Source of the DNA: Hormiphora californensis
Lineage: Eukaryota > Animalia > Ctenophora
Length of the DNA: 64,000 nt
Direction: 5' to 3'
Assembly (NCBI GenBank): GCA_020137815.1
Contig: CM035357.1
Coordinates: 806,001-870,000, forward strand
Shown here: in pieces, positions 18,901 through 53,812 of the stretch
Numbering within the stretch: position 1 is the stretch's first letter
How the letters are laid out: each line of letters begins with the position of its first letter
Translations under genes and position numbers: made by a program
Notes under the pieces: generated by a model
What the model saw: only the letters and a program-made list of their open reading frames with translations
Databases searched by the model: none
What the model was told of the DNA's origin: nothing

Positions 18901-21900
18901 TGTCCATGTCAAGGCTCCCCCTGAGCTTCACATCCTCCAGACGCTTCAAACTTGCCCTGGCGGCCTTCCAATTACTCAGGTCAATCTCACTACCGGTCCT
19001 TTTGGCTCTAAGTCTAAGATTCTCCTTTCTCTTTCTGGCATGCTCCCACTCCATATCGCGTCCAAGAGGTGCAAGCGATGGCTTGGTAATCTTGGTCGGG
19101 ATATGAGTCTCGGAGAGATCATTAATGAGACTGTGGAAAGCATCCCAGTTAGAGTGGATATCTCCGGACAGGACCCTCAACCAGTCAATAAAACTAAGAT
19201 CAGCTTTAAAGCCCTCCCAGTTAGCCAAATCAAAACACTTGATCTTCCTACGAACAACAGTAGTACGCTTCACATCAAAATTAATATTAAACGATATAGC
19301 AAAATGGTCACTGAGGCAGAGCTCATGCTGATCATGTATACTAATATTTGACACACACCTGGGATCATTAGAGAAAAGCAAATCTAAAGTATTACCCTTG
19401 CAGTGAGTGGGGGAATTAATGAACTGTGAATGACCGAGGTCACCCATCAGATAAGAGAGAAAGAGTTCCTCCACTCCACTGCGTGGCTGGGCCTCAGGCC
19501 AAATAATTCCAGGAAAGTTGAAATCACCAATGATAACATGCATACAGAACTTTCTACTCTGGAATAAAATATCAAAATGCTCTTTAAAAGAATTAAAATT
19601 AACAGAACCAAGATTTCCTACCCTGTAAAAAGTAGAGATACAGAGCTTCTTGCCGGAGGGAAAAGAAAGAAAAATAGATAGAAGCTCCGCTCTCACGCTG
19701 ACCTTAGAAAACTTAAAGCTAGAAACATCTAAGTCCTCTTTATGGGCAATGAGCACCCCACCCCCGTTCCTCCTAAACTTTCTAGGGTTCGATGGATCAT
19801 GGGGATGAGATTGCTCACTCCTGTCAACACGATAAACTTTAAAATTACGGGGGAAAATACAAGAAGAGCTAATTTTAACTTTCAGCCAGGTCTCGTTGAA
19901 GATAACGATGTCAAAATCATGTCGGTAGACAAAATCCCGGATCTCACCAACCTTAGTCATATCCAGAGGGGGCGAGTCAGAGTCTAAGTGACCTGTTCTC
20001 ACCAGCCCCTGGACATTATTATACAATACTTTAAGCTGTCTGGGACCGGGGTTTTGAATAGAGACATTGGATATAACTACTAGCATGAGGTTAATAATAG
20101 ATAAGGGGAAAGGGGGACATGCGCTCAGTGGCAGACATACCTCATCGTAGCAGCTGCAACAGTACCTCCGCCGTCCCGTCACACCGTCACCCGCGTCAAC
20201 ATTCATAAACATAGTCATGGCAGTGAGAGGGAAAGGGCAGGCAGGTGTTAGTAAATCATTATAAATATCGACCAGCACAAGAGAGTGCATATTATGATAG
20301 AATCATAATTACACTCTCAAGGTTCGAAAAATCAACAATATTAATTAATTACCAATCACACATAAAAATTCCAATATCACGTATACAGATAAGCAACCAA
20401 GTAGTTAGTACAGACGAAAAGTGGGTTATCAGGATAAACACAACCTTTAAATAAGATAAGACTGAGTATATAAGTAGGAATACAAGAAGGATAACTGTGT
20501 GAGAAAATATATAAAAATACGCACTGTCATGACAATCACTCTCACAAAAGCTGCTCCTCGCTGATGATGTTGTGTCGAATGTCCTCAGTGCCATCCTCTT
20601 TCTTGATCTTCACAGTGAAAAGGTGGTGCCCCGAAAAGTAAGCCCATAAAACCCCAGGTACATTCTCAAGTGCTTCCTTCCTCTCCACAAGTCCTCTAGA
20701 CATCCTGTGAAAAATGCCTCCACTCTTCTTCCCCGTCTGGTGATAAGTAATACGGTTTCTAATCTTACCCCTGTTGTCCTTTGTCATGATGGTGTCTTTC
20801 AGACTCGCCCTGAGAAACACAACAGTGACAGTCCGCGGCTTGCCCTTGTCCTTGCCACGTCGCGGAGCATTGCGGTGGCAAATGCTCAAGTCAGTAGGTC
20901 CTATGTTGGTATGGGCTACCGAGAGAGTGTCAAGGACCTGTTCTTGTAAGTCAGCTGCGGTCTCCTCACTGCCAGGATCCTGTAGTCCGGAGATGATCAC
21001 TGTGTTTCGACCAGAGTATGCTTCAGATCGGAGGTGCCTTTCCTCATGGGCTCTGATGTGATCCTCAATCTCTACACCCCTGGTTCCACTGACACCTTCC
21101 TTCCTGTCTGATTCAAGACGGTCCATGCGTTCCGAGAGACTGGCTACCTGATTAGACAACTCTAATCTCAACTTCCTCTCAGCATGGAACTCACCAATCA
21201 TGCCAAGCAGCAACTGGGCGGTATCAGCACCAGGCAAAAGAGCACATAACTGGTCGGTCGTAGTAATTTGGGCACCAGCATCAGAGCAGAGAAAATTAAT
21301 ACCAGTTGACGTGGTAGTACTATCAAGCGTCACAGTGGCGGGAGGAGTACCAGCAGGTTCATTGTTAGCAAGATGTTTGGCATTTAAGCGTGTAGCGTGG
21401 TCGTGCTGAGTCATGTCTGCCTACCCAAACCCTACCCCTCTAACTCAACTTGAAAAAATTCAAATTGAAAAGTCCGTTGGAGATAGATGATCGCAAGATG
21501 CTATCAGCTATCGGCAGATATTGGAAGAGCAACGTTAGCTGAGAGAAAGATATGGATATGAGAAAGATTACACCAAGATGAAAACAGTTTGTGAAAAAGT
21601 AACACCTGTTTAGAGGTCGTGTCGAGGCTCCAAACAGATGTGACAAAAACTGGAACAATTGGGAGAGGTCGATGTAGTTATCGACTCTACTAACAGGTGC
21701 ATTTCACACATTGAAGCAGCTCCTTCTCCTGGCCCTAATCAGGACCCCAGCCCCCATCACCAGTCCAACCTCCCCACTATTCCTGGGCACGGCCCACCCA
21801 CGACACACCCCAACCTTGAATATTCTGGTACAAGCACGAGACACACGGGCAGTAGCTAGGGTACTGGATCACCTCGCCAGTCTTGCACCTCTAGCTGTGA

Positions 21901-24278: not shown

Positions 24279-27200
24279 ATGGCGGAGAGTGTCAAAGTCA
24301 TTGTGCGATGTCGACCAATGAACGAACGGGAACGCAACCTCAACTGCAAGGCGTGTGTATCGTGTGATGATAAGATCAATCGTGTCAGTATTTTCAAGAA
24401 CGAAGATAAAACAACTCCTCCAAAGAACTTTACATTCGATGGAGCGTATTATACTAACAGTACCACGAAACAGATTTATGAGGATGTGGCTTTTGCGCTG
24501 GTTGATGGAGTACTGGAGGGCTACAATGGAACAGGTAGGAATGTTGTATAGGTCAATTATTACAAAGGAAAAGTTTTCAAAAAGAGGTACAATTGTTTCA
24601 CAAAATTAATTAATCATCAGCTCAAGGTTATATTTTATGGTCATTGGTCAATTGATCACAATAATTTCCTTCAGATGGTAGAATTAACCTTTCTCAATTT
24701 TGAAAAAGCTCTCCTCTCCTCTCTTCAAACACCTTTCCTCCCCTCTCTTCACAGTTTTTGCCTACGGTCAAACGGGATGTGGAAAGTCATTTTCAATGCA
24801 AGGAATTACAGATCCACCCGAGCAGAGAGGAATCATTCCCCGGGCATTTGAGCACATTTTCGAAGCTATAGATGTTGATGAAGAAGGAACAAAGTTCCTT
24901 GTTCAAGCGAGTTATCTGGAGATCTATAATGAGGAAATACGGGACCTGCTGGGTAAGTTTTTTAGTTACCATGGTTACCAGTGATGGGTAAGTTGTTTAT
25001 TAGTTACCATGGTTACCAGTGAACTTTTTAAACTAATAGGCACTGGAAGTCTAAATACCGCCTGAAAGCAGAAGACTAGTATAAAACATGACATTTCTTC
25101 CAGGCAAGGACACGAAAGCTAAATTGGAACTCCGGGAATCACCGGATAAGGGTGTTTACACACAGGGGCTCTCCCAACACATAGTCAAAAGTATCTCAGA
25201 GTGTATCAAGCTAATGGATAAAGGTTGGATGTCCCGATCTACTGGAGCTACACTGATGAATGCTGAGTCGTCAAGGTAACTAATATTGGTTACCATAGCA
25301 ACTCATTGGTTGACATGGTAACTAATATTGGTTACCATAGTAATTTCCTCTAATTGATAGTTTCCTGGTAAAGCTGTTTCTCAATCCCATGATCTTCCTG
25401 CAGGTCCCATTCCATATTTGCAATCCGGATAGAGATGTGCAACACAGATGAGGCAAATGCTGATGATGAGAAAATTAAAGTTGGAAAACTCAACCTTGTC
25501 GATTTGGCTGGATCGGAACGACAGGGAAAAACAGGTAAACTTGACACCATGACCCCCTTCTGGCCATAACATAATAATCAAGATCACTGTTACCTACAAA
25601 ATAACTGTTGGTGGAAACCGTATTTTAACAGCTTTAGATAAAATCTAAAATCCTTTGCTTCAGGTGCAACTGGTGATAGGTTGAGGGAGGCTACCAAAAT
25701 CAACCTCTCCCTCTCGGCCCTTGGTAATGTCATCTCTGCGCTGGTAGATGGGAAATCAAAACACATACCCTATCGAGACAGCAAACTGACTCGGCTACTT
25801 CAGGTATAATAACAGTGGGAAGAGGGTACGTCAGGGTACTAGTAGATCTGCCTAGTACCTGCATGCGGTAAATATCTAGAAATTGAGGTTACCTATCGTA
25901 CTAACTTTTCTTATCCCTTCATATCTTATACATTCTTTCTAGTTTCTTTCTGTTTTTCCCATGTTACTAATGGTGCTGATTATTTGTGGTTAACCCCATT
26001 TTAGGATTCCCTCGGTGGAAATACCAAGACGATGATGGTGGCATGCATATCTCCAGCTGATAACAACTATGATGAAACAATGAGTACCCTCCGCTATGCC
26101 AACAGAGCGAAGAACATCAAGAACAAACCGAAGATCAACGAGGTACGTCAAGGTTACCATGCCACCATGGGGTGTTACCGTGGTTACCATGGGGTGTTAC
26201 CATGGGGTGTTATCACGTGGTGTAACAATTATAATACCCATGAACATATTATGAAGATCTAGAACAATCGCCTCAGCTCATTTTACTGTTCAAGAATTAA
26301 TAAATCCAGTGATATTCACCTCTCTCTCTACCAGGACCCCAAGGATGCATTACTCCGAGAGTACCAGGCTGAGATTGAGAAACTGAAAGCAATGCTGGAA
26401 GGGAGGATGCCAATGACCCTAGAACAGGCTCCCCCTCCCCCTGCTGTTGTGACAGAAGAAGACGATTCGATGAGGCGAGAGTACGAGGAACAAATCGAAA
26501 TGCTTAATGTAAGTTATTTGTGTAAATTTGTAACGAATCGGTTTGAGCAGCATATAAATCGATTTATTAATTACTTGATTAACGAATTAATTGCAGAGGA
26601 AACCTAGGAATATGGGGCTAATCATCTTCGTTTTCCCCATTACTCTTCACATTTGTCTCCCTGTCTATGAAGTGTAATGAGATCGACACATGCATGTTAC
26701 ATGTTGCACTCGACTGTGTAATCTGTGACGTGCCCCTCTGACGATATATTGTAGGGTAAGCTGGGGTGAAATGGCCCGCGGGGTAAAGTGGCCCATGTAT
26801 GGGGCAAAGTGGCCTTAGTTATTACATGTGGTCACGTGACTTTTTCTCCAGCGGAGACCTGCTCGTTCTGTTCCAAATTTTCGCTTTAAAACTGCTGTCA
26901 TTTCTGTTTGGGTTGGCCGATTTTAATTTTGCAAAAACTGCCAGTTAGGCTTTATAATCCTCTAAAACGTGGTATAAAAATTTTTGAAGAAATTGGCATT
27001 TTTGTTGTCTTAATTGTCAATTTTGTGAAATCGGGGCGAATATGGCCCACTCTCCGGGGCAAAGTGGTCCGGTCTGGGGCAAAGTGGCCCACCTCTAGGA
27101 CCAATGAAATGGCGCCTGCAATACCACGTGATATTGGAATGCACAAAAATGTAGTACAGACGATCAAATTAGGGGCAAAGTGGCCCATGTTCCGGTGCAG

Positions 27201-30200
27201 AACATGGGCCACTTTGCCCCTAGTTTGATCGTTTCGTCTAACAACACCAGGCACGTGATAAAATCGAGCAATGCTATTGGCTTGGGCCACTTTGCCCCGG
27301 TGCAAATTTTCCAAAAAACGCCTCACCAAACTATTTGAATTGATTAATTAACCCATTAAATAAAACTTGTAGATATTAAAATTTAGCTCGGCTGAAAGGA
27401 AAAGGTTTCATTGGATAGCCTATATAATTTTTTTCTTCCTGCTGTATAAATTGCGTATTTTAGAACCTAAAACGTTAAAAGTGGGCCACTTTTACCCCAG
27501 CTTACCCTAGAGAAATTGTAAAGAAAAGAGGGCCGGAGTTATGACTGCCTTTCTCGATCCTCTCTCTGTCCTTGAACAAAACAGAGTAATAGGGTAAAAA
27601 GTATTCTGGAAAGTATCCTACTGTTCTGAAATAATGTGTTCTAAAATAATGTGTTCTAACAGACGAACAAACTCTAATGTGTTGCTCAAGCTGTATAGCT
27701 CACTTTGAAATGACACCTTGTACGTAGATCAGAGTCTTACTTCAAATGATCGCAGCTTATTCCGTGGAACTTATATATTTTCAGTTTTTGAAGTATCGTG
27801 AATAATGCTCTTGGACCACCTATGTTAAGTAACAAATTCTCAATTTTCAAATCAAATCAATTTCTCTCAAATCAATTTCTCCTCAGCAAAAATACGAAGA
27901 CGAGAAGATGAGTAAGATAAGGTTGAATGAAGAGATGGAGAAACTGAGACAGGAGTATGAGGAGAGAAAGAGTGAGAGTTCAACCACCCTCACGACCACT
28001 ACTACATCGACATCAGCTGCCGGCAAGATAACTTCTGACATGTAAGATGTTGTTTTTTTTCAAACCGATTTTATTGAATCAAATGGGATACGAGGGTCGA
28101 TCAAGGCTTACATAAAATGATGGATGATGGCTGGGATTTGACATCATGGAGATGGGTGAAGGAGGTTGTCATGTTACGACCCTCCTTTTATACCGGGGAG
28201 CGGTGAGAGAGGGCTGAGCAACGCAAGGGGGAGGGTTTATGGGTACTTGAGCTGCAACCGACCAAACAATTATTGTTCCTAAAATGTCTACAAAATAAAA
28301 TGCATTCATTCCTCTCTAGGGCCCTGTCTCCCATCGGTAGTCTTTCCTCTACACCAACTGCAGCTGCTGTTACTACCCAGGAGATGGCAATGGGAACCTC
28401 CCCTCTCTCTCCAATGATGGATAATGTGGAAGATATTGTTACTCACATGATGTCATCGGTAAGTTTGTTTAAACCCTTTTTACCGTCGCGTGGTGCGGTG
28501 AGACAGGTTCGAACCAGGTAATAGTTAGGTTCCTAATTCTGGGAACCAAATGTATCCTTGAATCGAGGTTAAAAAGCACATAGTTTGTAACTAACTGAGA
28601 CACTGATATCTTCTTCTTTTTGAGGAATTATGACATCGTTTTGCTGCAGGTCGAGACACCAGACGAGGGAATGGACGTACAGAGTGTTACTAGCTCGTTA
28701 GCCTATACTCCACTACCTGATAACACAGAAATGACCGTTCAACTGACCATACAACAGGTACTGCAGTTGTCTTCCAAGTGTGTTAACAGTGATAACAGTG
28801 ATAACCTATTTGTATTGAAAGTCTTTGTACGAGTACATATTGTACTATCTGAGCCCAGCCGTTTGGATAAAACACTTTCTATTATCACACCATGGTTGAT
28901 GGTATCATACTCATTTCCCCCGGCAGGCGGAGGCGTTGACACCAAAACAACTGGCCTCCCTAACCCTGACGCCAGGACAAGTTAGAATATTAGGTTACGA
29001 TGGACCTATAACACCAGCGCACCTGGCATGTCTTGCCCTGACTCCTTCCCAAGTTGCTGGATTGGATCTAACAACAGAACAACGGTCATCTCTCTCAACC
29101 ACTCAGGCTAATGTGGTGAGTTGATGAAAGTGCAGAAAGACCCTCTTTCTCTCACTGCTGCATCACGTGAAGGGCAGTTTTTAGTCTCTTGTTTAGCTCA
29201 CAAGGTCTGTGAGGGTTCGGCAGATTAGTAATAAACTACCCTCAGTTTCAGAATATCATCTTCTAAACTACTCCCTTCATTCCCTGCCAGTTATCTGCAG
29301 TTGATGAACAATGTGAGAGATTGGCTTACAACCAGTTGGTCGCCTATGTGGATCTCCTCAAAAATACCCGACCTCTTTCTCTCGATTTCGACCAGGCTCA
29401 GACGCTCACAAAGGCACAATTGGGTGCTCTTGTTCTGAATAAGGATCAGTCAAAGGAATTCGGGGGTGCTACTAATGCCCAGGTGGGACCATCTGTTGGT
29501 AACGAAGTTACCCCTCCCTTGCCGGCGCGCAAAGCGCACCAAACGAAGGCCGCGAGTGTGAGGTGTCTTCGATACCAAGACCATCTGGGAGTAGGGAGAT
29601 ACACCGAAAGATATTATCTTATATATCTAACTATGTCAGTGACATGCATTAATATTTGACAAAATGTGCCATTTGGCCATTTGAGTTTGGAGTGTATGTC
29701 TGGAGCGCGCGAAGCTTCATTTCAGTTGAAATGGCACATCGCCTACACTGTGCCGCGCACCGCGCACAGCCATTCTTATAATTTTAGATCGGGAACTGAG
29801 TTTCCGGGGACCTCAAATCCAAACAAACGCATTGACATGTTCCCAGTCTGTCGGCTCTCACACCGGGCCGAACAAACAGACTGCGTAGCATGGCAACAAA
29901 TGCAGGCCTCCTATAACACAACGCTAAACACTTACGAGACAGTATGAACATCTGAATCCAGATGATAATAAATCCCTTCAGGAGCTAACATTGGAAGAGA
30001 TAAGTCAGCTGAAGCTGAGTCCTGGACAAATCGCCCAGTTACGATTGACTGATGACCAAATATCTGAACTGGATGAAACGCAGTATGAGGTTGGTGAGAG
30101 ATAGAGAGAGGAGGTAATATTGAGTTTGCATTATGGCCTATACAGACTTTATCCCTGCAAGGAAAACTATGGGGCCTATCATTGATGGATAGTATCGACT

Positions 30201-33200
30201 CGTGTTCTAGAATGATCTATTCGTTATTTAGGACGATCTGAAACTCTAGATACAGCCTTGCTATGTTCTAACCCGCCCGAAACACAGTCTAGCCAGGCAA
30301 ATACAGCCTAGATACAACAACTAACATCATATTACTCTCCTTTCAGACTGTTATGAAAGTGTCCAAGTTGCTGGAGAAACAGGAGTTAATGAATGTGCTA
30401 AGTGACCCCCATCTACAAACTATACCGACCGTCACGGTAATTAATCAATTAGTTTATCAAGTAATTAATTAATTAACTTATATAAATTAACTAAGCGTGT
30501 TCCGAAACAATGTATACTTAGAGTATCCAAATGATTCTAACGCGATATCTGATCCGAGGCAGTATCTAACAACTCTAATTCCCACTCAGTTAACATCGTC
30601 TAGTAATGTATCTAACAACTCTAATTCCCCCTCAGTTGACATCGTCTAGTAATGTATTTAACAACTCTAATTCCCCCTCAGTTAACATCGTCTAGTAATG
30701 TATCTAACAACTCTAATTCCCACTCAGTTAACATCGTCTAGTAATGTATCTAACAACTCTAATTCCCCCTCAGTTAACATCGTCTAGTAATGTATCTAAC
30801 AACTCTAATTCCCACTCAGTTAACATCGTCTAGTAATGTATCTAACAACTCTAATTCCCACTCAGTTAACATCGTCTAGTAATGTATCTAACAACTCTAA
30901 TTCCCCCTCAGTTAACATCGTCTAGTAATGTATCTAACAACTCTAATTCCCCCTCAGTTAACATCGTCTAGTAATGTATCTAACAACTCTAATTCCCACT
31001 CAGTTAACATCGTCTAGTAATGTATCTAACAACTCTAATTCCCCCTCAGTTAACATCGTCTAGTAATGTATCTAACAACTCTAATTCCCCCTCAGTTAAC
31101 ATCGTCTAGTAATGTATCTAACAACTCTAATTCCCACTCAGTTAACATCGTCTAGTAATGTATCTAACAACTCTAATTCCCACTCAGTTAACATCGTCTA
31201 GTAATGTATCTAACAACTCTAATTCCCCCTCAGTTAACATCGTCTAGTAATGTATCTAACAACTCTAATTCCCCCTCAGTTAACATCGTCTAGTAATGTA
31301 TCTAACAACTCTAATTCCCACTCAGTTAACATCGTCTAGTAATGTATCTAACAACTCTAATTCCCACTCAGTTAACATCGTCTAGTAATGTATCTAACAA
31401 CTCTAATTCCCCCTCAGTTAACATCGTCTAGTAATGTATTTAACAACTCTAATTCCCCCTCAGTTAACATCGTCTAGTAATGTATCTAACAACTCTAATT
31501 CCCCCTCAGTTAACATCGTCTAGTAATGTATTTAACAACTCTAATTCCCCCTCAGTTAACATCGTCTAGTAATGTATTTAACAACTCACATTCCCCCTCA
31601 GTTGACATCGTCTCAAGTTACTCAGCTGGATCCACAGCTAGTTGAGAGTCTACCAATAACGGAGGGACAGGAGAAAATAATTAAGGAATTCAAGGATTCA
31701 TTCACCCATGTCGGTAGGTTTTATTTTGTTGCCACAGTATTACACGACTAGTTCACTTCTCACCAACTGTTGTCTGTTATGAAACTTCTTTTCTGATCTG
31801 CATTTCCCCTTCAGAAATGTCGGATCTAGACCTCCTGCCCCTTCTTCCTCACCAAGTAAAACATCTGAAGGTGGATGAATCGTGCAGTCTGGATGCTGAA
31901 CAAACTAAAAAGGTAGCCTTAATTAGGGGCACTCTAGCAGGGTACTTTAGGGTAATGTGGGGAGATCCTAGTAGCGGCTTTTATGTTTTGAGTAAGGGCT
32001 ATTCCCGGGCTACTACATAATAGACTAATGCACTACTATTGTCTAACAGCTCCTCCTATATTTTCCAGGTTGGTAAGGCAATGGAGACTCAGACCTATCT
32101 GGAGAGTTCTGCAATCGCTACCATGTGTGATTTAGAGGAGGGTTTAACTAAGACAGTTACCCTCACTCCCGCCGAGGCAGCTGTCATAACAAAGGAACAA
32201 TTCGCTAAAATCCAGGTATACAGTGCATTCAGCATTGTCTACAGCCTATCAATTCAGGTAGGTTTGGTGATCAAATATGATCTAAGAGTTGATAACCCGT
32301 AACTTATACTGTTCATAAACCATACTGCTGTTCTCAATTTATCAGGGTCAGGCGTTCGCCAGTCACACGAGGTAGTATGAATACAAACCCTAGGACTACG
32401 ACCGTATATAATACTGTTTTTGTAAACAGTATTATCAGCTAGATCGACAACGAATTTTTTCTGTGCAAACAAAACGATGTTAATTTGAAAGTTACCCTTC
32501 CCAGGTGGCGGTTTCCAAACCAGTCTCCATGACCCGGGCAGATGAAGCAGTGACCTTGACTCCCATTGAAATCCACCAAATGGAACTGTCTGACGAGCAA
32601 AAGGAACAGATCAAAGCAAAGAAAGTTAAACGGATCGAGAAACACGGCAAGGCAATTAAAAAGGTAGGGAGTGGGAAAATGGTGGGGTATATCGTGTCAT
32701 GCCCATAGCCGTATTTTGCTAGCATACATTATATAACGTTATCACAATTTCAACCAAATACAGAATAACCACTAATTAAGGGTACGCTAACCAAAATTTT
32801 TTTTCGAGTGCAGGGAAATGTCTCACCGTAGGGTTGTAGGCCATGCCAAGGAGACCTCAAATATGCAATTTGAGCTCTCAAGTCGAATTCACATTTTTGC
32901 TACAGCTGCTTGAAAAATGAACTGAAAATAAGTTTTTGGCATCTTAAAAATACATTTGTAAAGATAGGATCATAAAAATTTGTGGATTTGAAGAGGACAA
33001 ATTTTTGAAATCCGAGCTGATTTCCGGTCCTGAGGTGGATTTCTTTTTTTCCACTTTAACGCCCTATTTGGCAAAGTTCCGAAAACATGTGAAAGCTGTA
33101 AATTGGTGAAAAGTTGCGTCTAACGATTATCTAAGTGGCCATAAATTTTGGGCGTGTCCTTATTTGAGATAAGCTGTACAGAGTTTTTTTGTGAAAGCCG

Positions 33201-36200
33201 TCATTTCAGAAATAAATAAATTCCCTGTATCTCAAAAACGGTTGATCGTAGAGACCTGAGACTATGCTTAAACGATTCAGAAGGTCCGATTTTGGGGGGG
33301 TCTTCTGAGATACATTTTGCTCCTACTTCAACCGTTTTTGCTGTAATTGCGAAAAACAAAAACCCATCTTCGCCATCGTGGATTTTTTGTGATTTTGTTT
33401 TTTGATGATTATAGGGACCCATATGGACCAATTAGTGAAGGAATTAGCTTGTTAAACATTTTTCCATGGTTTCGGTCCTTTCTTAGCTAAAATTCCCTAA
33501 TTACAGGATATTGGAGTTTAGCTTTTGCCCTTTTCATAGAATTTGTTTTTCGCAATTACAGCAAAAACGGTTGAAGTAGGAGCAAAATGTATCTCAGAAG
33601 ACCCCCCCAAAATCGGACCTTCTGAATCATTTAAGCATAGTCTCAGGTCTCTACGATCAACCGTTTTTGAGATACAGGGAATTTATTTATTTCTGAAATG
33701 ACGGCTTTCACAAAAAAAACTCTGTACAGCTTATCTCAAATAAGGACACGCCCAAAATTTATGGCCACTTAGATAATCGTTAGACGCAACTTTTCACCAA
33801 TTTACAGCTTTCACATGTTTTCGGAACTTTGCCAAATAGGGCGTTAAAGTGGAAAAAAAGAAATCCACCTCAGGACCGGAAATCAGCTCGGATTTCAAAA
33901 ATTTTTTTGTGGCTACTCACCTCTTTGTCCTCTTCAAATCCACAAATTTTTATGATCCTATCTTTACAAATGTATTTTTAAGATGCCAAAAACTTATTTT
34001 CAGTTCATTTTTCAAGCAGCTGTAGCAAAAATATGAATTCGACTTGAGAGCTCAAATTGCATATTTGAGGTCTCCTTGGCATGGCCTACAACCCTACGGT
34101 GAGAGATTTCCCTGCACTCGAAAAAAAATTTTGGTTAGCGTACCCTTAACCCTCTTGCTTCTATCGGATCTTCACAACAATTTTCCTGCACAGCTTGTAA
34201 AACAGTCAGCTACGTTGGTTGAAATGAGTGTGGAGCGGAGCACATCACCTCCCGTCCTGAAACTAACAGAGGAACAAGCCAGCCAAGTTCAGGGAATGGT
34301 TGCACCTACCCGGGATCAACAGACTCAGATGAGTATCGAACCTGGCCGTCAACTGGATTCTGAGGAGGTGAGATATTTAACACACGATATTGATCAAGCC
34401 TGAACAACAGGTTATTGAACCAATCGACCGTTCAACGGTACGAGACCGTTCAACGGTACGAGACATTATTATTATTTAAATATCGAATTATAAGAACCTC
34501 GGGAAAGGGTTTTATACCAGAGGGTCCCCTAGAACCCCCCTCTCTCTTCTTTGGAACGTTAGTTATCACATTTTCACCCCTAGCTCCCCCAGTTATATTC
34601 TCACATTTTCTCCCAGCTAACGCCTAACTCCCCCAGTTCTATTCTCACATTCTCTAACTCCCTGATATATCAGTTGGCCGGGGTTGTCCTGACGGAGGCA
34701 CAGATAACTCAACTTGAGATCGGCCCAGATACCAACCTGGACCCAGAACAAAGGGAAAGTGTGGAGGAAGCGAAACAGAGATCTGTGAAACAGGATGCGT
34801 TGAAGAGGCTGAACGAGATACAACCGTTAAATGAGGTTGAGATGGTATTGTCGGAGACACAGGTATTTTATTGTTCTAACTGATCCCTATATAATAATTG
34901 GGAGAGAGGGTTTAGCGAGACACAGGTATTTTATTGTCAGAGAGGGTCTAGCGAGACACAGGTATTTTATTGTCAGAGAGGGTCTAGCGAGACACAGGTA
35001 TTTTATTGTCAGAGAGGGTCTAGCGAGACACAGGTATTTTATTGTCAGAGAGGGTTTAGCGAGACACAGGTATTTTATTGCGAGAGAGGGTCTAGCGAGA
35101 CACAGGTATTTTATTGTCAGAGAGGGTCTAGCGAGACACAGATATTTTAGCTGTCTCTACTTATTCATGCTGTCTTTTTTATTCATCCCTATTGGTCAGA
35201 TGACAGCTGTTTTAGTGTCAGTTTCATTTGGTAACGAAATTACCCCTCTGTAGAGGCATTAGGCATAGGGCATTGCGATAGTAAGGTTTAGGTACGTTTT
35301 AGCGTGCCCGCAATGTGGGGGTAATTGCGTTACCAACAGTTTCATGTATCCCAATTTGATTTAATTCCAGGCTCAAAAGTTGACATCCCGCCAAATTGAC
35401 AACCTGAAACTCACCACTGAGCAATGTGACATACTGGGTCTAGTACCGGGCCAGAGTTTCACCATCGATGAAATCTCCCTGCTTTCTCTAAACGGGGAAC
35501 AGATTATCCAGTTGAAGTTGACAGAGGAGCAGATTGGAATGATGAATGGGGAACAGAGGAATTGTTTATCTGCCCTTACCAACAGGGCCGTCCAGGAGGT
35601 ACGTCATTAAGATCGAAGTCTCTTCAGTCTGACGGGTTCATTTGAAATCGGGAGATCTCCCGTGGTGCAATGGAGCCCGTAATTGTCCTATTGTAGAGTC
35701 TTATTGTCTCTAGCCCTAATCTAATAACAGTTAACTTTCTCTCCAGTTGGCCTACCTAAAAATGAAGGAGGAGGAAGGAGTACTGCGGTTAACGGAGGAT
35801 CAAGTAGCTATGCTGAGTGAGGAACAGATAGCTAGACTGTCTCTGAACCCTGCCCAGACCACTACAGTTGGTATGTTGGTTGATTATCATCATGTAATTG
35901 TTATAGATAATATCTCTGTCTGAATCAGAGTTTGAAATAACTGACAGACACACAGACACACAGACACACAACAAGTACTAGGTGGATCCAATGCTCTGAC
36001 AGATCACACACACACACACTCACAATCACACACATCACTAACACTAAAACATTTCAGAAGGAACCTGCCAGGGAACGAGAGAGATGCTGTGTTCAATATC
36101 CCTGACTGCAACCCAGATAACCCAACTGTCCCTGACCTCCCAGCAGGAGTGTTTCCTAACTCAGGAACAGAAGAGAGCGCTTGCCGGAGCCATGGAGCAT

Positions 36201-39200
36201 CTCCAGAAAGAGAGTGATCTACAGGAGGGTAAGAATGTGGGAGCTGTGACTGTTCAGGTTTTGTGAAGTAGGAATACGTGTCTATTCAGGAAGTAGGTGT
36301 ACGTGTTTGTTAATAAGTTTTAGATCCGATCTGGTATTTTTGATGTACGGCGCATGCTCTCTGAGATCATGAACCTTGGTTCTAGTGACTGCCTCGTGCA
36401 TGAATGTGCCTGTGTATTTTGTCATGTGCCTGTTTATTTTGTCATGTGCCTGTTTATTTTGCCATGTACCCTTAGCCCTGAGGCTCCCAGGGGTTTCCGC
36501 AACGGTAGCAGCGACCACCACGACCGAGAAAAAGAAGATAGAGGATGGTGGAGAGAAGAAGAAAGTCAAACTGGTCCGGTTAACTGCTGAGCAGGTCAGG
36601 ATCTGAGAAATTCTTAGAGAATTACTTGAAAAAGTTCCAAAATACACCTAGGTGATACATGTTTTGTGTTAGGTGCTACATGTTTTGTGTTTTAATTTTC
36701 CCTTTTTTAGGCATCGCTCCTCACAAAAACTCAGCTGATGTCCCTGGTTTTGACTGAGGAACAACTCAATGCCCTAGGCGGCATCTCACAGGATGAAGTA
36801 TGTGATCTGACACCCTCTCAGCTGTCTACCATAGCCTTTACTTCGGATCAGATTGCAGCCTTAAAGATATCCCAGAATCAGGTAATGTGTTATACGGGTC
36901 AGGATTCTTGGTATGATATCCTTCTTGATCTCTCAAAGCGCCTTCAATGTGTGGATGGGATTCTTAGTACCCCCCCCCCCCCCCCCGTTCTGTGCCTTAC
37001 AAGTTAGAGGGTCGTGTATTCATATTGGAGAAATATTTTTAGAGCCTATTTTAGTATTCAAAGGTATGTTGTCAAAGGTATGTTGTACTCAAAGGTATGT
37101 TGTTTGGGGAAAATGAATAAAAGAAAAAAACAAAAAGGTTCAAATGCACAAAGAAATGACTTTATTTAACAACTCTCTCTCCTCCCTCAGCTGAAAGGAA
37201 TGCAGTCGGGTAAAAAGGCAAATGGAACGAAGAAGAGCTCGAACATGCCCCGAGTACAGGTATGTAGATTTCTTGGTTACTAGGGGGACTGGTAACCACT
37301 GATCTCCTGTCATGGTAGTCATGGTAACGTATCAAAATTATTCTGTCGGTAAGGCGGTTATTTTGAAACCAACGATAAGCATTATTTGTGCTGTATGAAC
37401 AATACAAAGCATTATATGACAAATTTGCACAAAAAGCAATAAATAGAAGTATGTATTAGTGAAATTTTCACAGTTAAAACACTCACAAAAACGGCAATTT
37501 TGCATTTGCGGGCATCGCACTATAGACGCATTACCCACGTACTATAGACGCATTATAAACGCATTATAAACGCATTATAGACGCATTATAGACACACGCA
37601 ATATAGACGCAATTTCGTAAGCAGCACTATAATAGACGCAATATAGACGCATTATAACAGCAATATAAACGCATTTTTATAGACGCGACGCAGTATAGCC
37701 GCATTATAGGCGCACTACCCACCCCAAAATCACCTTATAGACGCACTATAGACGCATTATAGACTGACTATAGTAGCACTATAAACGCTACATAGACCCA
37801 TATAGACGCATGATCGAAGCATTATAGACGCAAATCGCTTTTTATAGACGCCGCGTCTATAAAAAACGAGCTTTTTTAAGAAGCACTATAGACGTACTCA
37901 GACGCACGCTGCCATATTTGAGGCGCAGTTGGGCGAACTATAAACGCATTTTTGTCGCATATAAAAGGAAGCAGTATAGACGCATTATAGACGCATTATA
38001 GACGCATGTGCGAGAAATCGATAAAGACGCAATATAGACGCAATTAATAAGAAGGAGAGGGAGAGAGACTAGAGGGAGGGAGGGAGGGAGGGAGGGAGGG
38101 AGAGGGAAGGAGAGGGAAAGAGGGAGGGATACAGAGACAGATCAGACAGAGACAGATGGACACAGATCTGAGACAGACGGACAGAGTAAGATGGAGAGAG
38201 ATTAAGATGGAGAGTGGAGAGAGAGAGAGTGAGACAGAGAGGGAGATAGTAAGCGCGTGTTTGTCCGTCCGTCTGTCTCTGTCCGTTTGTTTCCATCTCT
38301 GTCTTTTTCTGTCTCACTCTTTTTATGTCTCACTCCATCCCTATATCACTATCTTTCCATCTTACTCTCTTTCCATCTTACTCTGTCCTTCTGTCTCAGG
38401 TCTTTATCCGTCTGTTTCTGTCCCTGTACCCCTCCCTCAGTCCCTCCCTCTCCTTCCCTCTCCCTCCCTCCCTCGCCTCTCTCTCCCTCTCCTTTTTATT
38501 TTGCGTCTATATTGCGTCTTTATCGATTTCGCACACATGCGGCTATAATGCGTCTATAATGCGTCTGTACTGCTTCCTTTTATATGCGACAAAAATGCGT
38601 TTATAAAACGCCCAACTGCGCTTCAAATATCGCACTGTAGCCTGGAGTACGTCTAAAGTGCTTCTTTAAAAAGCACGTTTTTTTATAGACGCGGCGTCTA
38701 TAAAAAGCGATTTGCGTCTATAATGCTTCTATCATGCGTCTATATGGGTCTATGTAGCGTTTATGGTGCTGCTATAGTCAGTCTATAATGCGTCTATAGT
38801 GCGTCTATAAGGTGATTTTGGGGTGGGTAGTGCGCCTATAATGCGGCTATACTGCGTCGCGTCTATAAAAATGCGTTTATATTGCTGTTATAATGCGTCT
38901 ATATTGCGTCTATAGTGCTGCTTACGAAATTGCGTCTATATTGCGTGTGTCTATAATGCGTCTATAATGCGTTTATAATGCGTTTATAATGCGTCTATAG
39001 TACGTGGGTAATGCGTCTATAGTGCGATGCCCGCAAATGCAAAATTGCCCACAAAAACATAGCATTCAAACAAAAAACATTTAAACAAGCAAAATGCAAC
39101 TGAAACCAATTAATGTCCTGTTTCTTCATTTATCTCTTCCAACTTTCACTCAAATTGTTTTGCCTGATAGAACACACACCTTAGCACAAATGCAGCCATG

Positions 39201-42200
39201 ACAAATGGAAAACAAACACAGAACGCCCCACTTACAGCATAAAGGGTATACAGCAATTTACTAGAAACCTCCTTCTTCCCTTCCTCCAACCCGTCCCTTC
39301 CATCCCCTATCTCCCTACACTTGATGAGAGGGCTGAGTGCTCGGTTGTTACATGCAGCCTTGTACCTATCACCTCCAGGACATGCCATAACCACCTCAAT
39401 GCCACGTGGAATTGTGGTGAGATTGGTTTGGGGGACACCATATGCCTGCTTGATGTTGCCAGTTGAGCAGGGAACCAGGTGACTGGGTTGAGGGCAGAAA
39501 TCAAGGGCCAGCTCGGTAATATCAAAAAACACGTCCGGCCTGGTGTTTGGTTTGGGGATTTGGGCATAGTACATGGTGCCTTCAGATCCGTTTATCATGA
39601 GACTCCCACATCCAGTATCAGACTTCATATCCATAACAAATACCTGGGAACTGGTAGAATTCTGGCAGGTTACCATGGTAACTGTAGTTTCGTTGGACCA
39701 TCGTGGTGGGTGACCAATGGGTGACGTTATACAGATATCCGACTCACGGCGTCTAATCCTGACAGACAGGCTGGACGGTAGAAAGTGTGCCCCAGGTCCG
39801 ACAACCTCAAACTCCCAAGTATCCTGAACGCTAGCACACTTGGCCCACTTGAGCTCCCCATCCTTTGCCTTTAGACACGACAATTTGTCCCATTCAAGAT
39901 ATTTGCGAAGGAGCAGGGGTGTCTCCTTACTCAGCTCCACAAAGTCCTCCACCGATGTTAACCCCGTGCTAGGTAGTGTTTCGAAGCTAAAGCACTGCCA
40001 TGAGGCAGTGAGGTGGATGTCAGACGGCACCTTCTGACCCAGACCAGTCTTACTGACAAGCATGCACTCACCTGTCACGATTGACCAGATCACATTTTGA
40101 CAGTTGTTGAAGAAACAGAGATCCCAGCATTGGATGATGTTCCCAGTCTGCATTGTTATGATGGTGTTGAAGGTGGTGTAGGTGTAACGACGGAAACACC
40201 CCAGATATGGTGGCTCAATCCACGGTTGAAGGAGGGATGTTGGTGTGTCCTGAGCACTCTCCTGTTCCGGCTGAGATGTGACAATCAGTGCTAGTAGGGC
40301 TAGGTGAAAACAGGACATGATGCTACTCTTTCGGCTGAGAGGAACCATGTTCTAAAGAGGGAGGGGTTTCAAAACTGTAATAATATTCACGACTTAGGAT
40401 CTATAATAAGCCCTCTTAATAATAGGCGGCTAGTTCTATCAGGTATCACTATAGTTGGTCAAATCGAACCATGACTTACCTTATAATACGATCAGTGATA
40501 ATATGTGATCGTATGCAGCATACCAAGGGGGTATAGCAATAGCAAATGCATGGGCTGGGGTATGAAAGTATGAATTATCTAGTTCTCCACTAAATTAGTG
40601 GGATTAAATCCCCCCACTAATCCCCCACTAAGCCCCCCCCCCTCACTACTCAGGAGATGCCACTAGCAGAAGAGGCTGCATATATAAACAATAGTTCTCC
40701 CCTAATCCCCCACCCCCCCCCCCACCCCAACCATCCCAGGAGATGCCACTAGCAGAAGAGGCTGGTCTGATATAGTTCTCTACTAATCCCCACCCCCTCA
40801 CTACTCAGGAGATGCCACTAGCAGAAGAGGCTGGTCTGATATAGTTCTCTACTAATCCCCACCCCCTCACTACTCAGGAGATGCCACTAGCAGAAGAGGC
40901 TGGTCTGATAGGGGATATAGACCAGGAAGAAGCCATCAAACTCCACCAGGCGGCCCTTTCCAAGCTACAACAACTCCAACAAAACATGGTCACTGCGGGG
41001 GAGCAGCGGTCAGTGGTTCAAACTACAGAGGCAACTGCAGCTGGAGGGGGAGCCAAGCGTAGCAAACAGGTGAGTGTGTTTGAATTGCGTTCATGTGGAT
41101 CTGAATTTAAATTGTCGGGTGTGAGGTCAGGGATTAATTGTTCTCTTTTTGGAAGGACTCGGTATTTTAGCACATGTATACAAACTTTTGAAATTTCTTT
41201 TGAATTTATTCACCGTTCTTGGAATTGAAATCCAGATTTACGTCAATGGCCAATGCATAAAACAATACAAATTCCACCTCCCTCTCTGAACGCTCTCCAA
41301 AAGAAAGGGTTAGCATTCCTGGGAGCGGAGCAAAAAGAACCCCCATTATTTTCAGGAAATGAAGGAGCCTAAAGAAACCCATTGTTTTCAGGAAATAAAA
41401 GAGAAGCTACGAAAGAGGCGAGAGGTTGCAGAGGCGAAGAGAAGGAAACTTAGGAAAGCAATGGCAGAGGGAGACGACGACGGAGTAATTGAGGAACTCT
41501 TTAGCTTACAGATGGAGGAGGTAATTAGCAATATTAATTAGTATCAGTAGGTAATTAGCAAATATTAAGGTAATTATATAATTAACTCAAAGTAATACAT
41601 TAACACGAGTGATAAGCGAATAACAAACTAGGAATTTCAAATGAGACAGAATCAAGAGTAACTCTGCCAAATTTTTATCCCCACCCCTGTAGCTACTACA
41701 ATATTTCAACATATTATCATTATGCACATATTTGGCAACTTCTTAACTATAATGATATACGTGACGTGTACGAAACATTTGGTCCCATACCAAGAAGCTA
41801 GCTTACTAAATGGTTTCAAGTCAAATTTTCATCATATTACGCTTTTTGCGCCCTCGTTCTCTCAGGTCATCCAATGAATATAATTTAATGAATATATTGT
41901 AGTTACGTAGAAATACATTATGCAATTGCTTTTTCTTGACCCCCCCCCTCTTACTCGGTCCTCTTTCTCTTAATAAGAGGGCGAGAAGAATATATGAGTG
42001 GCTGCTCTTGATTTCTTCTTTTAGCTATTTGGTTGGCCTGCCCCAGTAAGGTTGACCCTCATTATCTGGGACGAGGTAGATAAGAACACTGAACCATTCA
42101 GGTTGAATAACGTCGCTCCAAACAATAATAACGATAATTAATTTCAGGTTGAGGAGCGGAACCAGAAGTTAATTAAGATCAAGGATCGATACCAGGAGAA

Positions 42201-45200
42201 GGTATGTCTCACCAAACCAAACCAAACCAATTAAGGCCAGAGGGGGGGGTCCGAGGGTCAAAAAATGTACTTTTCTGAGGTTCACATATATGATGTAACT
42301 CGGTGGTAGGAAACTTTTGGGTAGGTTAGCTGTGCACCAAGTGTATCAGGAAGCCTTGTTTTTTGAGGTTAACTTTTGACCGAAAATGTAAGTTAACCTC
42401 AAAAATCTTGTATTTATGTCGCCTTCACAGATAAAAATGGTACCAATCGATAGATCTGATCAAGGAGACCAAATGTTTAAAGTTTCAGAGGTCTAAGCCA
42501 TATAGTTGTTCGAATATTTGAGGTTAACTTATCGCCCAAAAAACAACCTTTTTGGTCTTTTTTCACACCTTACTTTTAAAATCGCCACTACATTCATCTC
42601 ATAGACGGCTAAGAGTTGGGCCTTGAAATTTGGCAGGCATGATCCTTAGATAATAAACTGTGTTTTGAGTGTAACGATTTTTGATTGAGACTTCCGTTCC
42701 CAAGATATTGAGGTTAACATATTTCACATCTGATATTTTTTAGACGTTAACCTCAATATCTTGGGAACGGAGGCTCCAATAAAAAATCGTTACACTCAAA
42801 ACACAGTTTATTATCTAAGGATCATGCCTGCCAAATTTCAAGGCCCAACTCTTAGCCGTCTATGAGATGAATGTAGTGGCGATTCGTAAAAATGTTCCAA
42901 GTTATTCACCAAAAGGCTACTTTTGGTGAAATATGTTAACCTCTAAATTTAAAGAACTACCAGGAATAGCACCATAAAATTGCTCACACATGCTCTCCTT
43001 AGTGATACCTTACTTTTAGAACAGTTTTTATTGTTTCAATACCTGATCTCTAAGAATTAGAGAGGTTAACATTGATTTTGGGCCAAAAGTTAACCTCCAT
43101 TTTCTCCCTATAACAGCGCGCGCAAAATCGATTCCGAGTATGTCATCTGGTCCGGCTCTTCGAGCCGGACCAGATACCGAAAGTGACTTTTTATACCCCC
43201 GGACCCCCCCCCTCTGGCCTTAACCAACCAATTACGAAACCAATTAACAAACCAATTACCAAACCAATTACCAAACCAAACCAAACCAATTACCAAACCA
43301 AACCAAACCAAATCGAAGCAAACCAAACCAAACCAAACCAAACCATTTACCAATTACCAAACCAAACCAATTACGAAACTAATTAACAAACCAATTAACA
43401 AACCAATTAACAAACCAATTACCAAACCAAACCAAACCATTTACCAATTACCAAACCAAACCAATTACGAAACTAATTAACAAACTAATTAACAAACCAA
43501 TTAACAAACCAATTACCAAACCAATTACCAAACCAAACCAAATCGAAGCAAACCAAACCGAAGCAAACCAAACCAAACCAAATCGAAGCAAACCAAACCA
43601 AACCAATTACCAAACCAATTAACAAACCAATTAACAAACCAAATTAAACCAAACCAAAGCAAGCCGAACCGAAGCAAACCAAACTAAATTCACCAAACGA
43701 TCCTACGGTATCGGGCGGCGTGTGGTGCCTGTATTTTAACTAAATATTTTTCACAAGGTACAAGAAATAGACGATCTCAACTCGGAGTTCCAGGCTCAGA
43801 GGGAGGATTATTTAGAGTCGATCCGGGAACAAAGTCAGGAAACTAAGTTGTTACAGCAAATTCTGGAACAGGTAAAGCACATTATTTTACGGTAGCACCC
43901 CCTATCCATATTCCAATGGAATATGGATAGGGTCACAGTTCACATCCTATCCTATGGTCTCTCTCCCTAGTAACAGTAACGATCTCACTTGTGTTCTCTC
44001 TAGTAAAAGTAACGATCTCACTCGTGTTCTCTCTAGTAAAAGTAACGATCTCACTTTTGTTCTCTCTAGTAAAAGTAACGATCTCACTTTTGTTCTCTCT
44101 AGTAAAAGTAACGATCTCACTTGTGTTCTCTCTAGTAAAAGTAACGATCTCACCACGTTTACAGATTCAACCACTTCTCCGACGGGACAGCAACTACTAC
44201 AATTTAGACTCAATAAAAAGGGAATGTAAGTGGAATCCTGAAACTGGATCATGGTTCATTCCGCCTGTAATGATATCCAAAACTAAACTACCTGCCCCTG
44301 ATATGCAGCAATCAAAGGTAATTGGGTTGCATTGAAACACATGAATAATTCAACTGATGTTGGATACAGGCTCAATCAAAGACTTTGGTTAATTATTAAT
44401 ACATTTCGATCAAGTGGACTCCCTACATGATAATATGATTAATTCCCGACTCTAGAGACCAATTAGAGTTTGGATAGTTAACAATGAATTGATTAACTGA
44501 TACAATATGTGCTAATGAATTGATTAATTTATATGTGCTAATACTTTTCCCTCATCTCAGAGTAGTTTGATTCAGCCGGCTCACTTGGATCAAGTTGACG
44601 ACACGAGGATAAGGAACAAACTCATCAACTCAGCTGACAAATCAGATTACTTCAAAAGTACTCGAGCACAGAAAATTCTTGAAGTGAGTGATTATAATGG
44701 GGCCCCGTTATATTATTGGAGCAAGATATATCTTCTCTAGCTGCTATCACACAACACGCCCTAGCCCCTACTGAGCAGATCTCATTCATGAGTTATATTG
44801 ACTTCAGGAACCGACCTGATTGGCTGATGACCAGTCACGTGACCTAAATAACGAGCTCTGATTGGTTGTGTCGGTCGGTTCCTATATTGAGTACATATTA
44901 TCCTCTACTTTGCGAGCAAAAAATATGTACAGCTGCCGAGTCGGGGTAGCTATGATAATATTTAAATAAGATAGAGCGAGCTTATCTCAACGCTCGTGAT
45001 CTCTATATACCAGAGGTCACTACAAGCTTGTATGGTTTGAGTTCTTAACTAGTTATAATGCGATATTTTGCTCGAGTTATAACTCGAGCAAAATTTCGCA
45101 ATCTGCAGATTGAGGGCCTCAATTTGAATCAAAGTATGAGGGCCCTGGATGACAATAAGGCCAAGGTGCGAGAAGTTCTCTGAAAGTTGCAATAGAGAAC

Positions 45201-45772: not shown

Positions 45773-46731
45773 GAGATCTATTCAATGAGAGTTATTATGA
45801 TGCAGGTAGGCTTTGTTGAGGCACCCCTTACTCAACAAGGTAGGCTTTTGTATCCGAGTTTTCAGGTCAGACTCGGTGAACTCAGCAAAATATGTTAATT
45901 CCCGAAGCCGAACTATGAAAATGTAGGTCAGATTATTACTAATTGGACCTGTTAATTAACTAATTAATCGATCGTTTGGATACTGATAGTGACATGAAGT
46001 AGAAAGTTGTATAGACGGAGACAGATACTAGATTCTATATTGTGAGCAGATTAGTTATCTTCAGTGTTCATGATCGACCAGATCCTGTCTGGCGTGGCGG
46101 GTCGCCCGACTCCGCATTGGGCCAAAGTTTGATTCCCGACAGTGCGCTCAAATCGGGTCGGCACCGCCACCCCGCCAGACAGTCCATGTCATAGGCGTGT
46201 ATTTCAATTCGGTGCAAATAGTACAGGACAGTTTGTCTTTGTGACTTGGATAAAATATGATGGATTATTGGATCATCATGGATCGAAATCATGATTTGAT
46301 TAATCAGATGTAAAAAGATGTATGTTTTTTGTGTTTCTTTCATGGCTAGTTAATCATTCGTTTGAATTTGAGAGATGCTTCTACTTTATGATACTGACAA
46401 TCATTGCTGATTGGCCAAGTTCAACTACAACGATTGGGCTGAATTTTACATTTACAGTGGTCTTAGGCGCGAAAATATTTATATTTCGTTGCATTTTGTG
46501 CCGCGCGAAAATTCAACTGTGTATTGAACCGCGCGCGGTCAAAATTTAGAATCGAATGTCATGTCTGCTGAACATTTTTTGCCATTTTTTTTCTTCTTTT
46601 TTTACGGTCCTGAGACCTGTGTCACTCAGAACCGAATGCTGAAGTCCTACACCGGCATAGTTTTGGTTACTTTCGATGATACTCTAACTTTTTGAATTTA
46701 AACCAAGCCTTAAAAACACTTAGCTGTCAAA

Positions 46732-52230: not shown

Positions 52231-53363
52231 ATGTTGTGTAGACGTTACGTACCAGGTGCTACTCTCCTACATTCCCCATTCAAAGCCCCTTTCACACAGT
52301 CTCGCACTTTTTTTGGTGAGTTTCTGCAACGTGGAAGTTTTTTTAGAGGTTGGGAATTACAAAGGTGACTGTCACCGCTCTGGTACGGTAAAATGTTATT
52401 TATATAAGTGCTGTTATAAAGGTGATATAGTAGTGTTTCAGATTTTAGTTTCGAGCATTATATATCGTTTATGACGATATCTTTTAAAAGAGATAATGGA
52501 TGTTGTAAATTAGTCACAGATAGACATATTTTCTACCTTGCTAAATTCTTTCAAAATCTCTCTTCTAGTACACTTAATATTTTAATGATCTATCTCCCAT
52601 TATTTAGGCACTATATAATATTTGGTTACGAAGTCACCCCTTTTATTGCATATAATGAGCAATAATAACAGAGGAGTAATTTCATAACCAAATATAATAC
52701 AGTCGGACCCCGATTTACCGGGATGCTCGGGGAAAGGGTTTTGCCCGGTAAATCGGGGTGCCCGGTATATCGGTATATCCTATTATTTAGGCACTTATAT
52801 TATTATAACTATATAATATTTGGTTACGAAGTCACCCCTTTTATTGCATATAATGAGCAATAATAACAGAGGAGTAATTTCATTACCAAATATTAAATAT
52901 TCATTAACTGTACAGGCCGATTCAGAAGATTCAAGAATAACCGAGTTGATGAAGTGCGGCTGAAGCATCTTGGAGCGGACAAGCTTAGTAGCGAATGGAT
53001 ACTATTGTAAGAGATAATTTGTTAAGTGATTACGGCACCACCTTATTTTGAGAGAGAGACAGAGACAAAGACAGAGACAGAGACAGAGACAGAGACAGAG
53101 ACAGAGACAGAGACAGAGACAGAGACAGAGACAGAGACAGAGACAGAGACAGAGACAGAGACAGAGATAATTGAATGTGGTCAAAAATACATTTCTTCCT
53201 CACTGTTTCAGGAACAGAGGGAGAGTAAAGGTGTATGGGCCAGGGTATGACTCTTCTCAGAATTGGTTAACAGATTTCCAGGAAATTGACCAGTGGAACT
53301 TTCAACTAGGTTTCAGATTGACACACATTGACGCATCTGATACGGAAGTTACTGATTTGGGTG

Positions 53364-53454
<91 letters not shown>

Positions 53455-53812
53455 CTCTCTCTCTCTCCCTCTCTCTCCCTCTCTCTCTTTCTCTCTCTCT
53501 CACCCTCTTTCTCTATTTTCAGGCTTCCGTCATCTGCGGAACACCATTTACCTACAACAAGCCACATTCTCAAACTGCAGACACGTCACAGATGCAGCTC
53601 TTCCCAACCTTATCTCAAGCTCGGAGGCTGGATCACTGAAATCTTTAGATCTCTCAGGGACTATGATAACACCTGACTCTCTTGATGTGTTAACCCAGTT
53701 AACATCATTAAAAGTGTTAGATTTAAAAAATTGTGCAGGGTTGGAGAGTTATAAAGAAATAATGTTGGAGACGTTAAAAAGTGAATTGTTAAATTGTAAA
53801 GTTATCATGTGA
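52231..53812 (+). CDS. ATP5S: ATP synthase subunit s / coupling factor B (LRR protein)
   Basis: Exons 52231-52315, 52916-53006, 53212-53360, 53523-53812; basic targeting peptide; NRVDEVRLKHLGADKLSSEWILLNRGRVK and IDASDTEVTDLGFRHL parallel human NKVDYDRIRDVGPDRAASEWLLRCG and IDATDSCIMSIGFDHM (recalled). Confidence 0.8.
53056..53500. repeat. (GAGACA)n (53056-53166) and (CT)n (53368-53500) intronic microsatellites
   Basis: Direct reading. Confidence 0.95.

Follow-up and report, generated by a model that had tools for sequence, protein, structure and literature searches.

In the ctenophore Hormiphora californensis, the ciliary motor KIF17/OSM-3 carries in its central region a 779-residue array (amino acids (aa) 531-1309) of an undescribed repeat, comprising seven full units of about 94-115 aa and an eighth cut short at 67 aa. 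The gene lies in a stretch of 64,000 nucleotides (nt) of contig CM035357.1 (GenBank assembly GCA_020137815.1, positions 806,001 to 870,000 of the forward strand; hereafter the window, to which all coordinates refer), from which it was rebuilt by hand as 33 exons at 24279-45772 (+), joined by AG/GT splicing into a protein of 1634 aa with no internal stop. KIF17/OSM-3 is well studied and its central region has been deemed a hinge or left undefined, such that a probably folded array of some 780 residues at this place, in animals with giant compound cilia, was unexpected. What is new is a known motor with an undescribed repeat domain, the unit of which looks like an unclassified small domain of helix-capping motifs related to a rare helical screw. 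Our tentative reading is that the array projects from the hinge as a loop and serves as a multivalent platform to which cargo or adaptors of ciliary transport bind.

The KIF17 gene and its repeat array

The order of motor, neck coil, first coiled coil (CC1), basic second coiled coil (CC2), tail hairpin motif and C-terminal basic cluster is kept, with the CC1-CC2 region extending over about 960 aa (435-1394). The parts of the gene are as follows.

24279..26142 (+), kinesin motor domain, exons 1-6, aa 1-345; 88% identical to Bolinopsis
26335..27979 (+), neck coil and first coiled coil, exons 7-8; coils recognised by sequence pattern and from the arrangement given in PMC2886353
27980..28736 (+), Ser/Thr-rich linker, aa 435-530; little conserved, 28/96 identical to Bolinopsis
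28737..29368 (+), repeat unit 1, aa 531-626, exons 10-12; Mnemiopsis unit 1 modelled with a predicted local distance difference test (pLDDT) of 82
29369..30430 (+), repeat unit 2, aa 627-741, exons 12-14
30431..32152 (+), repeat unit 3, aa 742-841, exons 14-17; off-consensus, yet 72% identical across species
32153..34253 (+), repeat unit 4, aa 842-935, exons 17-19
32610..32663 (+), basic helix of unit 4, candidate binding site; invariant basic motif in a unit of net positive charge
34254..34841 (+), repeat unit 5, aa 936-1029, exons 19-20
34842..35779 (+), repeat unit 6, aa 1030-1123, exons 20-22
35780..36489 (+), repeat unit 7, aa 1124-1215, exons 22-24; followed by a variable charged linker up to 36570
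36571..37196 (+), repeat unit 8, truncated, aa 1243-1309, exons 24-26
41392..41469 (+), basic patch with which the distal coiled coil begins; its exon is 81% identical in Bolinopsis
44222..44266 (+), kinesin-2 tail beta-hairpin motif W-N-P-E-T-G-S-W, with an acidic apex and aromatics at -3/+4; fits by sequence the description in PMC12527917
45623..45772 (+), last exon, with stop codon and a C-terminal basic cluster, KKKKRRSK; agrees with the C-termini of Bolinopsis and Mnemiopsis

In a PDB sequence search the motor of the Bolinopsis ortholog scored highest with OSM-3 (520.8 bits), ahead of KIF3B (435.3) and KIF3C (380), and both this affinity and the domain order are those of the homodimeric kinesin-2 motors human KIF17 and Caenorhabditis elegans OSM-3, from which the ctenophore protein differs by the array of 779 aa in the CC1-CC2 region. 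The same region is a short hinge in OSM-3 and about 300 undefined residues in human KIF17 (PMC2886353), while in a sipunculan KIF17 of 894 aa, with coils at 392-444 and 574-673, about 130 residues separate the two (PMC10779256). The basic patch at 41392..41469 is, by position and charge, likely equivalent to the autoinhibitory basic stretch in CC2 of human KIF17 (PMC2886353). As this patch and the tail hairpin are retained, the array does not replace the autoinhibitory motifs.

The original prediction had joined 17 exons between 28650 and 37259, and these, with their AG/GT ends, are in frame with the motor and tail exons and free of stops. They encode 829 aa, slightly above the earlier figure of about 815, of which 779 are repeat, and all five peptides quoted with that prediction are present in the translation. 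The repeat itself is well marked: the motif [LIVM][TSDN]xx[QE] occurs 45 times in it compared with 10.1 +/- 2.9 in 2000 shuffles (maximum 21), and a hidden Markov model (HMM) built from the other seven units recovers each unit at 21.1-63.0 bits, a score reached by none of about 500 shuffles per unit (best 12.5). The eight units first counted are thus all recognisable, with the qualification that unit 8 is partial and the array is better described as seven full units plus one. As had been stated, the units are diverged in DNA, with no blastn self-match and protein identities between units of 12-39%, and the repeat is unfamiliar in that no Pfam or NCBIfam cut-off was reached.

Conservation and origin of the array

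Identity between the window and Bolinopsis falls from 88% in the motor to 29% in the linker, rising again to 61% in the repeat (475/779), 75% in the distal coils and 70% in the tail. Within the repeat, 105 of the 135 L/T/Q positions of the motif are identical, as are 370 of the 644 non-motif positions. Identity is 43-94% between units that occupy the same position in different species (22 pairs) and 10-40% between units at different positions (231 pairs), the two ranges having no overlap, and in a tree of the units seven of the eight positions form groups (support 90-100), unit 7 being the one that does not. That units cluster with their positional counterparts in other species means that the array is old and that each of its units is under a constraint of its own. 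Unit 4 is the only unit with a net positive charge, in an array whose net charge is -38 in the window and -28 in Bolinopsis, and its basic motif IKAKK.KRI.KH.K is invariant in all nine aligned pieces, which were chosen for covering that exon.

Most exon borders cut inside units. A phase-0 intron nevertheless stands at the same alignment column in units 1, 6 and 8, with units 1 and 3 sharing another, and from this shared phase-0 column we infer that the array arose by internal duplication in a gene that already bore introns, the sequence comparisons suggesting that it was fixed before the split between Pleurobrachia and the lobate ctenophores and escaped later homogenisation. The shared position in units 1, 6 and 8 would also allow exons 11-20 or 21-24 to be lost without cutting through a unit. 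The majority of phase 0-0 exons pointed out earlier is real (12/17) and is nothing peculiar to the repeat, since 13 of the 16 introns within the repeat are phase 0 and so are all seven of those 3′ of it. Two other sequences, P0011 and P0015, run through the positions of window introns (exons 17/18 and 19/20), and repeat intron positions thus differ among ctenophores.

Occurrence and inclusion in other ctenophores

The ctenophore source suspected in the original prediction is borne out by a model from Pleurobrachia bachei that agrees with the window at 455 of 467 aligned residues. With a profile of ten repeat exons, four of 7989 scored candidates matched, namely KIF17 of Bolinopsis microptera (1655 aa), the P. 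bachei model and two weak ALTTAQ-repeat proteins, while a search with the repeat region gave 25 matches among 7995 scored, all of them pieces of the KIF17 gene. The Bolinopsis protein aligns exon by exon with the whole model, with the array in the same place; its RefSeq name is plain KIF17 and motor domains are its sole annotation. Its five RefSeq isoforms differ from one another only by indels of 3-5 residues, with every unit present in each.

That the repeat belongs to KIF17 is supported by the Bolinopsis and Mnemiopsis models, in both of which motor, repeat and tail stand in one chain. In addition, an intron-free open reading frame (ORF) that is presumably from a ctenophore (P0010), with 44-47% identity to the named species, extends from exon 21 into exon 27, as a transcript would. 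Run X1 comes from another, divergent organism, presumably a ctenophore, and is RNA by our guess; one of its contigs is 83% identical on exon 18 and, by hand translation, its loose end reads VVKKLKKQSA, the junction of exons 18 and 19; this run covers only scraps of the gene (the motor joint 26140-26333 and the exon 18 piece). The original prediction had named a separate nested gene as the finding that would undo it. The repeat exons could still be such a gene or a chance chain of exons, as the annotation of P. bachei model P0002 as a separate protein of 488 aa might suggest, but this is hardly credible given that the models join motor, repeat and tail and that P0010 and the exon 18-19 contig link the repeat exons onward, in the case of P0010 to exon 27 with no intron in between. 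Only one clear nested ORF is present, in intron 26; it is antisense and has no match to the unit HMM.

Some models lack part of the array. The Mnemiopsis leidyi model (1189 aa) joins exon 18 directly and in frame to exon 27, leaving out exactly exons 19-26, and as such has units 1-4 only, and the P. bachei model is without exon 23. The short Mnemiopsis form may be either an isoform or a model error. Unit-5 pieces on contigs resembling those with Mnemiopsis-like pieces of units 2-4 suggest that unit-5 exons exist in this lineage.

No named protein from outside the ctenophores was found to carry the repeat in searches made through a word filter or with a profile of 163 positions, sponge, placozoan and cnidarian KIF17 not being among the sequences compared. 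The search with that profile, which was unfiltered, gave 13 matches (11 KIF17 pieces and two unrelated repeat proteins); the profile spans the end of unit 3 and unit 4, from an alignment that kept the 12 of 29 candidate rows aligning at the expected place, and because it covers 163 positions only this is a poor test for distant repeats. A search with the tail for KIF17 of other animals returned two ctenophore proteins only, among 683 candidates. Likewise, two metagenome scans confirmed 0/586 and 0/591 pattern matches, the ESM Atlas gave no usable match and the readable supplementary files of PMC12221973 held none. In the literature searched, which lies largely outside subscription journals, no paper on ctenophore KIF17 or on this repeat was found.

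Predicted fold of the units

AlphaFold modelling of the 802-residue Bolinopsis region (13 alignment rows) gave a mean pLDDT of 57.7 and a predicted template modelling score (pTM) of 0.26, with units 1, 5, 6, 7 and 8 at a pLDDT of about 70-87. For a single Mnemiopsis unit (9 rows) the best of five models reached a pLDDT of 82 and a pTM of 0.61, and it consists of six short helices, each beginning after the Thr/Ser of a motif, two short strands (residues 2-4 and 46-48) and one helix of 31 residues. Each full unit is accordingly predicted to hold six short L-T-x-x-Q-capped helices, spaced about 8-10-14-10-10-8 in unit 1, along with two short strands and a helix of 25-35 residues leading to the next unit, such that in these models, built on shallow alignments, the array would read as beads joined by long helices. 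The helical solenoid of the original prediction is hence upheld as far as predicted helix is concerned, and its continuity is not, the model showing separate compact units that each end in a long helix. The fraction of LIVMF at a/d positions of these long helices is 0.17-0.50, compared with 0.38-0.67 in the motor's own coils, and in this crude heptad count a coiled-coil reading of them is weak. A two-copy complex prediction of units 5-7, in which the alignment was not used, scored 0.00, a value that speaks neither for nor against pairing.

Structure searches gave little that could place the unit. Foldseek found no PDB match at E<=0.001 for either model and a viral structure library yielded none, results that show neither a new fold nor a different one. 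In a wide structure search the best Z was 5.0 for the array and 4.1 for one unit; 9ZEM and 7QLR were not among the rows listed, the presence of 9ZEM in those libraries not being known. Six of the top seven rows for one unit were death-fold domains (DED, CARD, PYD), which are likewise small six-helix bundles, the best of them at Z 4.1 with a root mean square deviation of 4.3 over 75 residues and 5% identity, within the tool's range for common arrangements and thus a lead only. No Pfam death-fold match is listed for KIF17.

By sequence, the nearest likeness is to short helix-capping repeats. The designed protein HeliScrew4 (PDB 9ZEM) came first when the unit profile was compared with PDB sequences (E 1.1e-10), and like the unit it has short helices that are N-capped by Ser/Thr and surround a hydrophobic core. 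In such an alpha-helical screw the helices run around one axis with 2.5-4 units per turn, and the HeliScrew fold, a uniform 8-mer, came from random 8-mers and has one natural PDB example (bioRxiv 10.64898/2025.12.04.691947). The alignment of HeliScrew with the unit needs two-residue gaps, the unit model adds strands and the long helix, and P0010 alone does not match 9ZEM; since HeliScrew arose from random sequence, convergence on a helix-capping motif is likely. The bacterial ALTTAQ repeat (PF20080) has the same L-T-x-x-Q motif, and three of 21 exon peptides match it weakly (E 0.011-0.021, 15-16 bits), the best at 15.8 bits falling short of the gathering cut-off of 26.4; whole KIF17 proteins do not list PF20080. 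Conversely, the unit HMM gives two ALTTAQ proteins 37-39 bits (shuffles <=7), while hhalign of the unit against ALTTAQ gave a probability of 25% over 27 columns. ALTTAQ proteins keep a period of 8 residues (26 times in P0003), whereas the KIF17 units combine periods of 10 (16 occurrences) and 8 (10 occurrences) and close with a long helix. A horizontal origin from ALTTAQ proteins is not favoured, the period being different and introns being shared, and the likeness to these repeats, too, is probably convergent. As a separate observation, residues 242-351 of P0003, itself an ALTTAQ-repeat protein, align with HeliScrew4 over 110 residues without gaps (E 3.8e-16), which makes it likely from sequence that PF20080 proteins are natural alpha-helical screws; the word ALTTAQ occurs in no paper of the literature searched.

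Possible roles of the array

A binding platform is favoured because the units are conserved separately and beyond their motif positions (370/644) and because the inhibitory motifs remain. When the motor is folded back and autoinhibited, its heads would be held by the CC2 basic patch and the tail hairpin and the array would form a loop protruding from the hinge; partners bound to the beads, for which the basic helix of unit 4 would be the best candidate site, might load lineage-specific cargo, the units having presumably specialised after duplication. One paper states that the KIF17 stalk binds ACT. Other points weigh against this reading. No expression, localisation or binding data were found. 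For human KIF17, the central region failed to act as an inhibitor in trans, and cargo binding is placed in the tail (PMC2886353), so a cargo role for this region would not be inherited from the family. Neighbouring units packing against each other could explain the position-specific conservation equally well. Units 2-4, which with unit 8 are the best conserved, have the least confident fold (pLDDT mostly <50, residues 113-161 and 183-354), and of the five single-unit models only two lie near 80, the other three being near 56. Half of the array may be dispensable, as the Mnemiopsis model has only units 1-4, and the Bolinopsis isoforms are computational models. Finally, the array is only putatively restricted to ctenophores, as this is drawn from three limited searches and three papers.

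Alternatively, the array might regulate the motor, the basic helix of unit 4 (or others) serving as an added autoinhibitory latch, or as a second microtubule site, either making the motor more processive in very long cilia or cross-linking microtubules. In keeping with this, the unit 4 motif is invariant in 9/9 pieces and retained even in the shortened model from Mnemiopsis, the array is located at the hinge where the motor folds back and a basic stretch in CC2 inhibits human KIF17 (PMC2886353). We hold it to be possible and doubtful, as the whole array is acidic (-38 and -28), the known inhibitory motifs are still present and one motif leaves eight units unexplained. A structural spacer or spring, lengthening the stalk to reach distant cargo or membrane and kept in sequence for folding and inter-unit packing only, would suit the architecture of knobs and long helices, the highest conservation at motif positions (105/135) and the four-unit form that may exist. 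It appears rather unlikely to us: 370 of 644 non-motif positions are identical, the units have not been homogenised and heptad patterns in the long helices are poor, and since same-position identity exceeds different-position identity with no overlap, unit-specific contacts fit better than an interchangeable spacer.

The continuous helical solenoid of the original prediction, with its length tuned by skipping of phase 0-0 exons, draws on the 12/17 exons of that phase, on the likeness to HeliScrew (E 1.1e-10) and on the intron shared by units 1, 6 and 8, which allows loss of whole units. The Mnemiopsis model, which skips exons 19-26 in frame although unit-5 pieces seem present in that lineage, and the P. 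bachei model without exon 23 may also point to modularity by skipping. On balance we consider it improbable, given that most exon borders lie inside units, the five Bolinopsis isoforms are alike in keeping all of them, exons 19 and 23 are included in other sources, the long helix breaks the run of motifs in every full unit and the pTM of the array is 0.26.

The binding-platform reading can be carried further to the giant cilia of ctenophores. OSM-3 serves the distal segment of worm cilia (PMC6406257), and comb-plate cilia, up to 1 mm long, have a separately built distal compartmenting lamella with the protein CTENO189, which has two death domains (bioRxiv 10.1101/2022.03.27.486007). The Discussion of the same preprint names assembly of the two-storey comb plate through intraflagellar transport as unsolved. 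By analogy, the KIF17 hinge might have been turned into an array of undescribed small domains that carries lineage-specific comb-plate parts such as CTENO189 to the distal storey of the compound cilia, with four- and eight-unit splice forms serving different cilia. This proposal is a long shot, and the link to comb-plate cilia is the least supported step. The gene is nonetheless a concrete candidate for comb-plate building that can be knocked down, with a defined insert to delete.

Other elements in the window

Introns of KIF17 contain several further elements. Intron 26 holds the antisense ORF mentioned above (39149-40351, (-)), which is intron-free and about 400 aa long; it begins like a signal peptide, is rich in cysteines, has a hydrophobic stretch at its C-terminus and gives no Pfam or NCBIfam match. 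Long inverted repeats lie in introns 18, 26 and 29 (32776-34149, 37493-39049 and 42580-42884), with arms of 139-260 nt that are 81-100% complementary, and are probably foldback or miniature transposons. Intronic tandem arrays copy exon edges, with units of about 45 nt ending in the exon-15 acceptor at 30570-31602, units of about 33 nt repeating the exon-20 donor at 34862-35150 and repeated acceptors similarly preceding exons 27 and 33; these could offer alternative splice sites.

Outside KIF17, exons of a potassium-channel gene (Ion_trans_2, E 1.1e-11) lie just 3′ of it at 46714-47919 (+). Two near-identical, oppositely oriented ORFs of 221 aa at 59687-60349 (-) and 60283-60945 (+) have no Pfam match at E 0.01 and resemble what we take to be a Penelope-type GIY-YIG endonuclease. 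A non-long terminal repeat (non-LTR) retroelement at 17090-21420 (-) has a 1071-aa endonuclease and reverse transcriptase ORF and an upstream ORF of 292 aa. Weak Pfam matches mark a single-exon, F5/8-type-C-like secreted ORF at 8593-9120 (-) and, at 53171-53809 (+), a frame containing leucine-rich repeats that is broken by a CT microsatellite.

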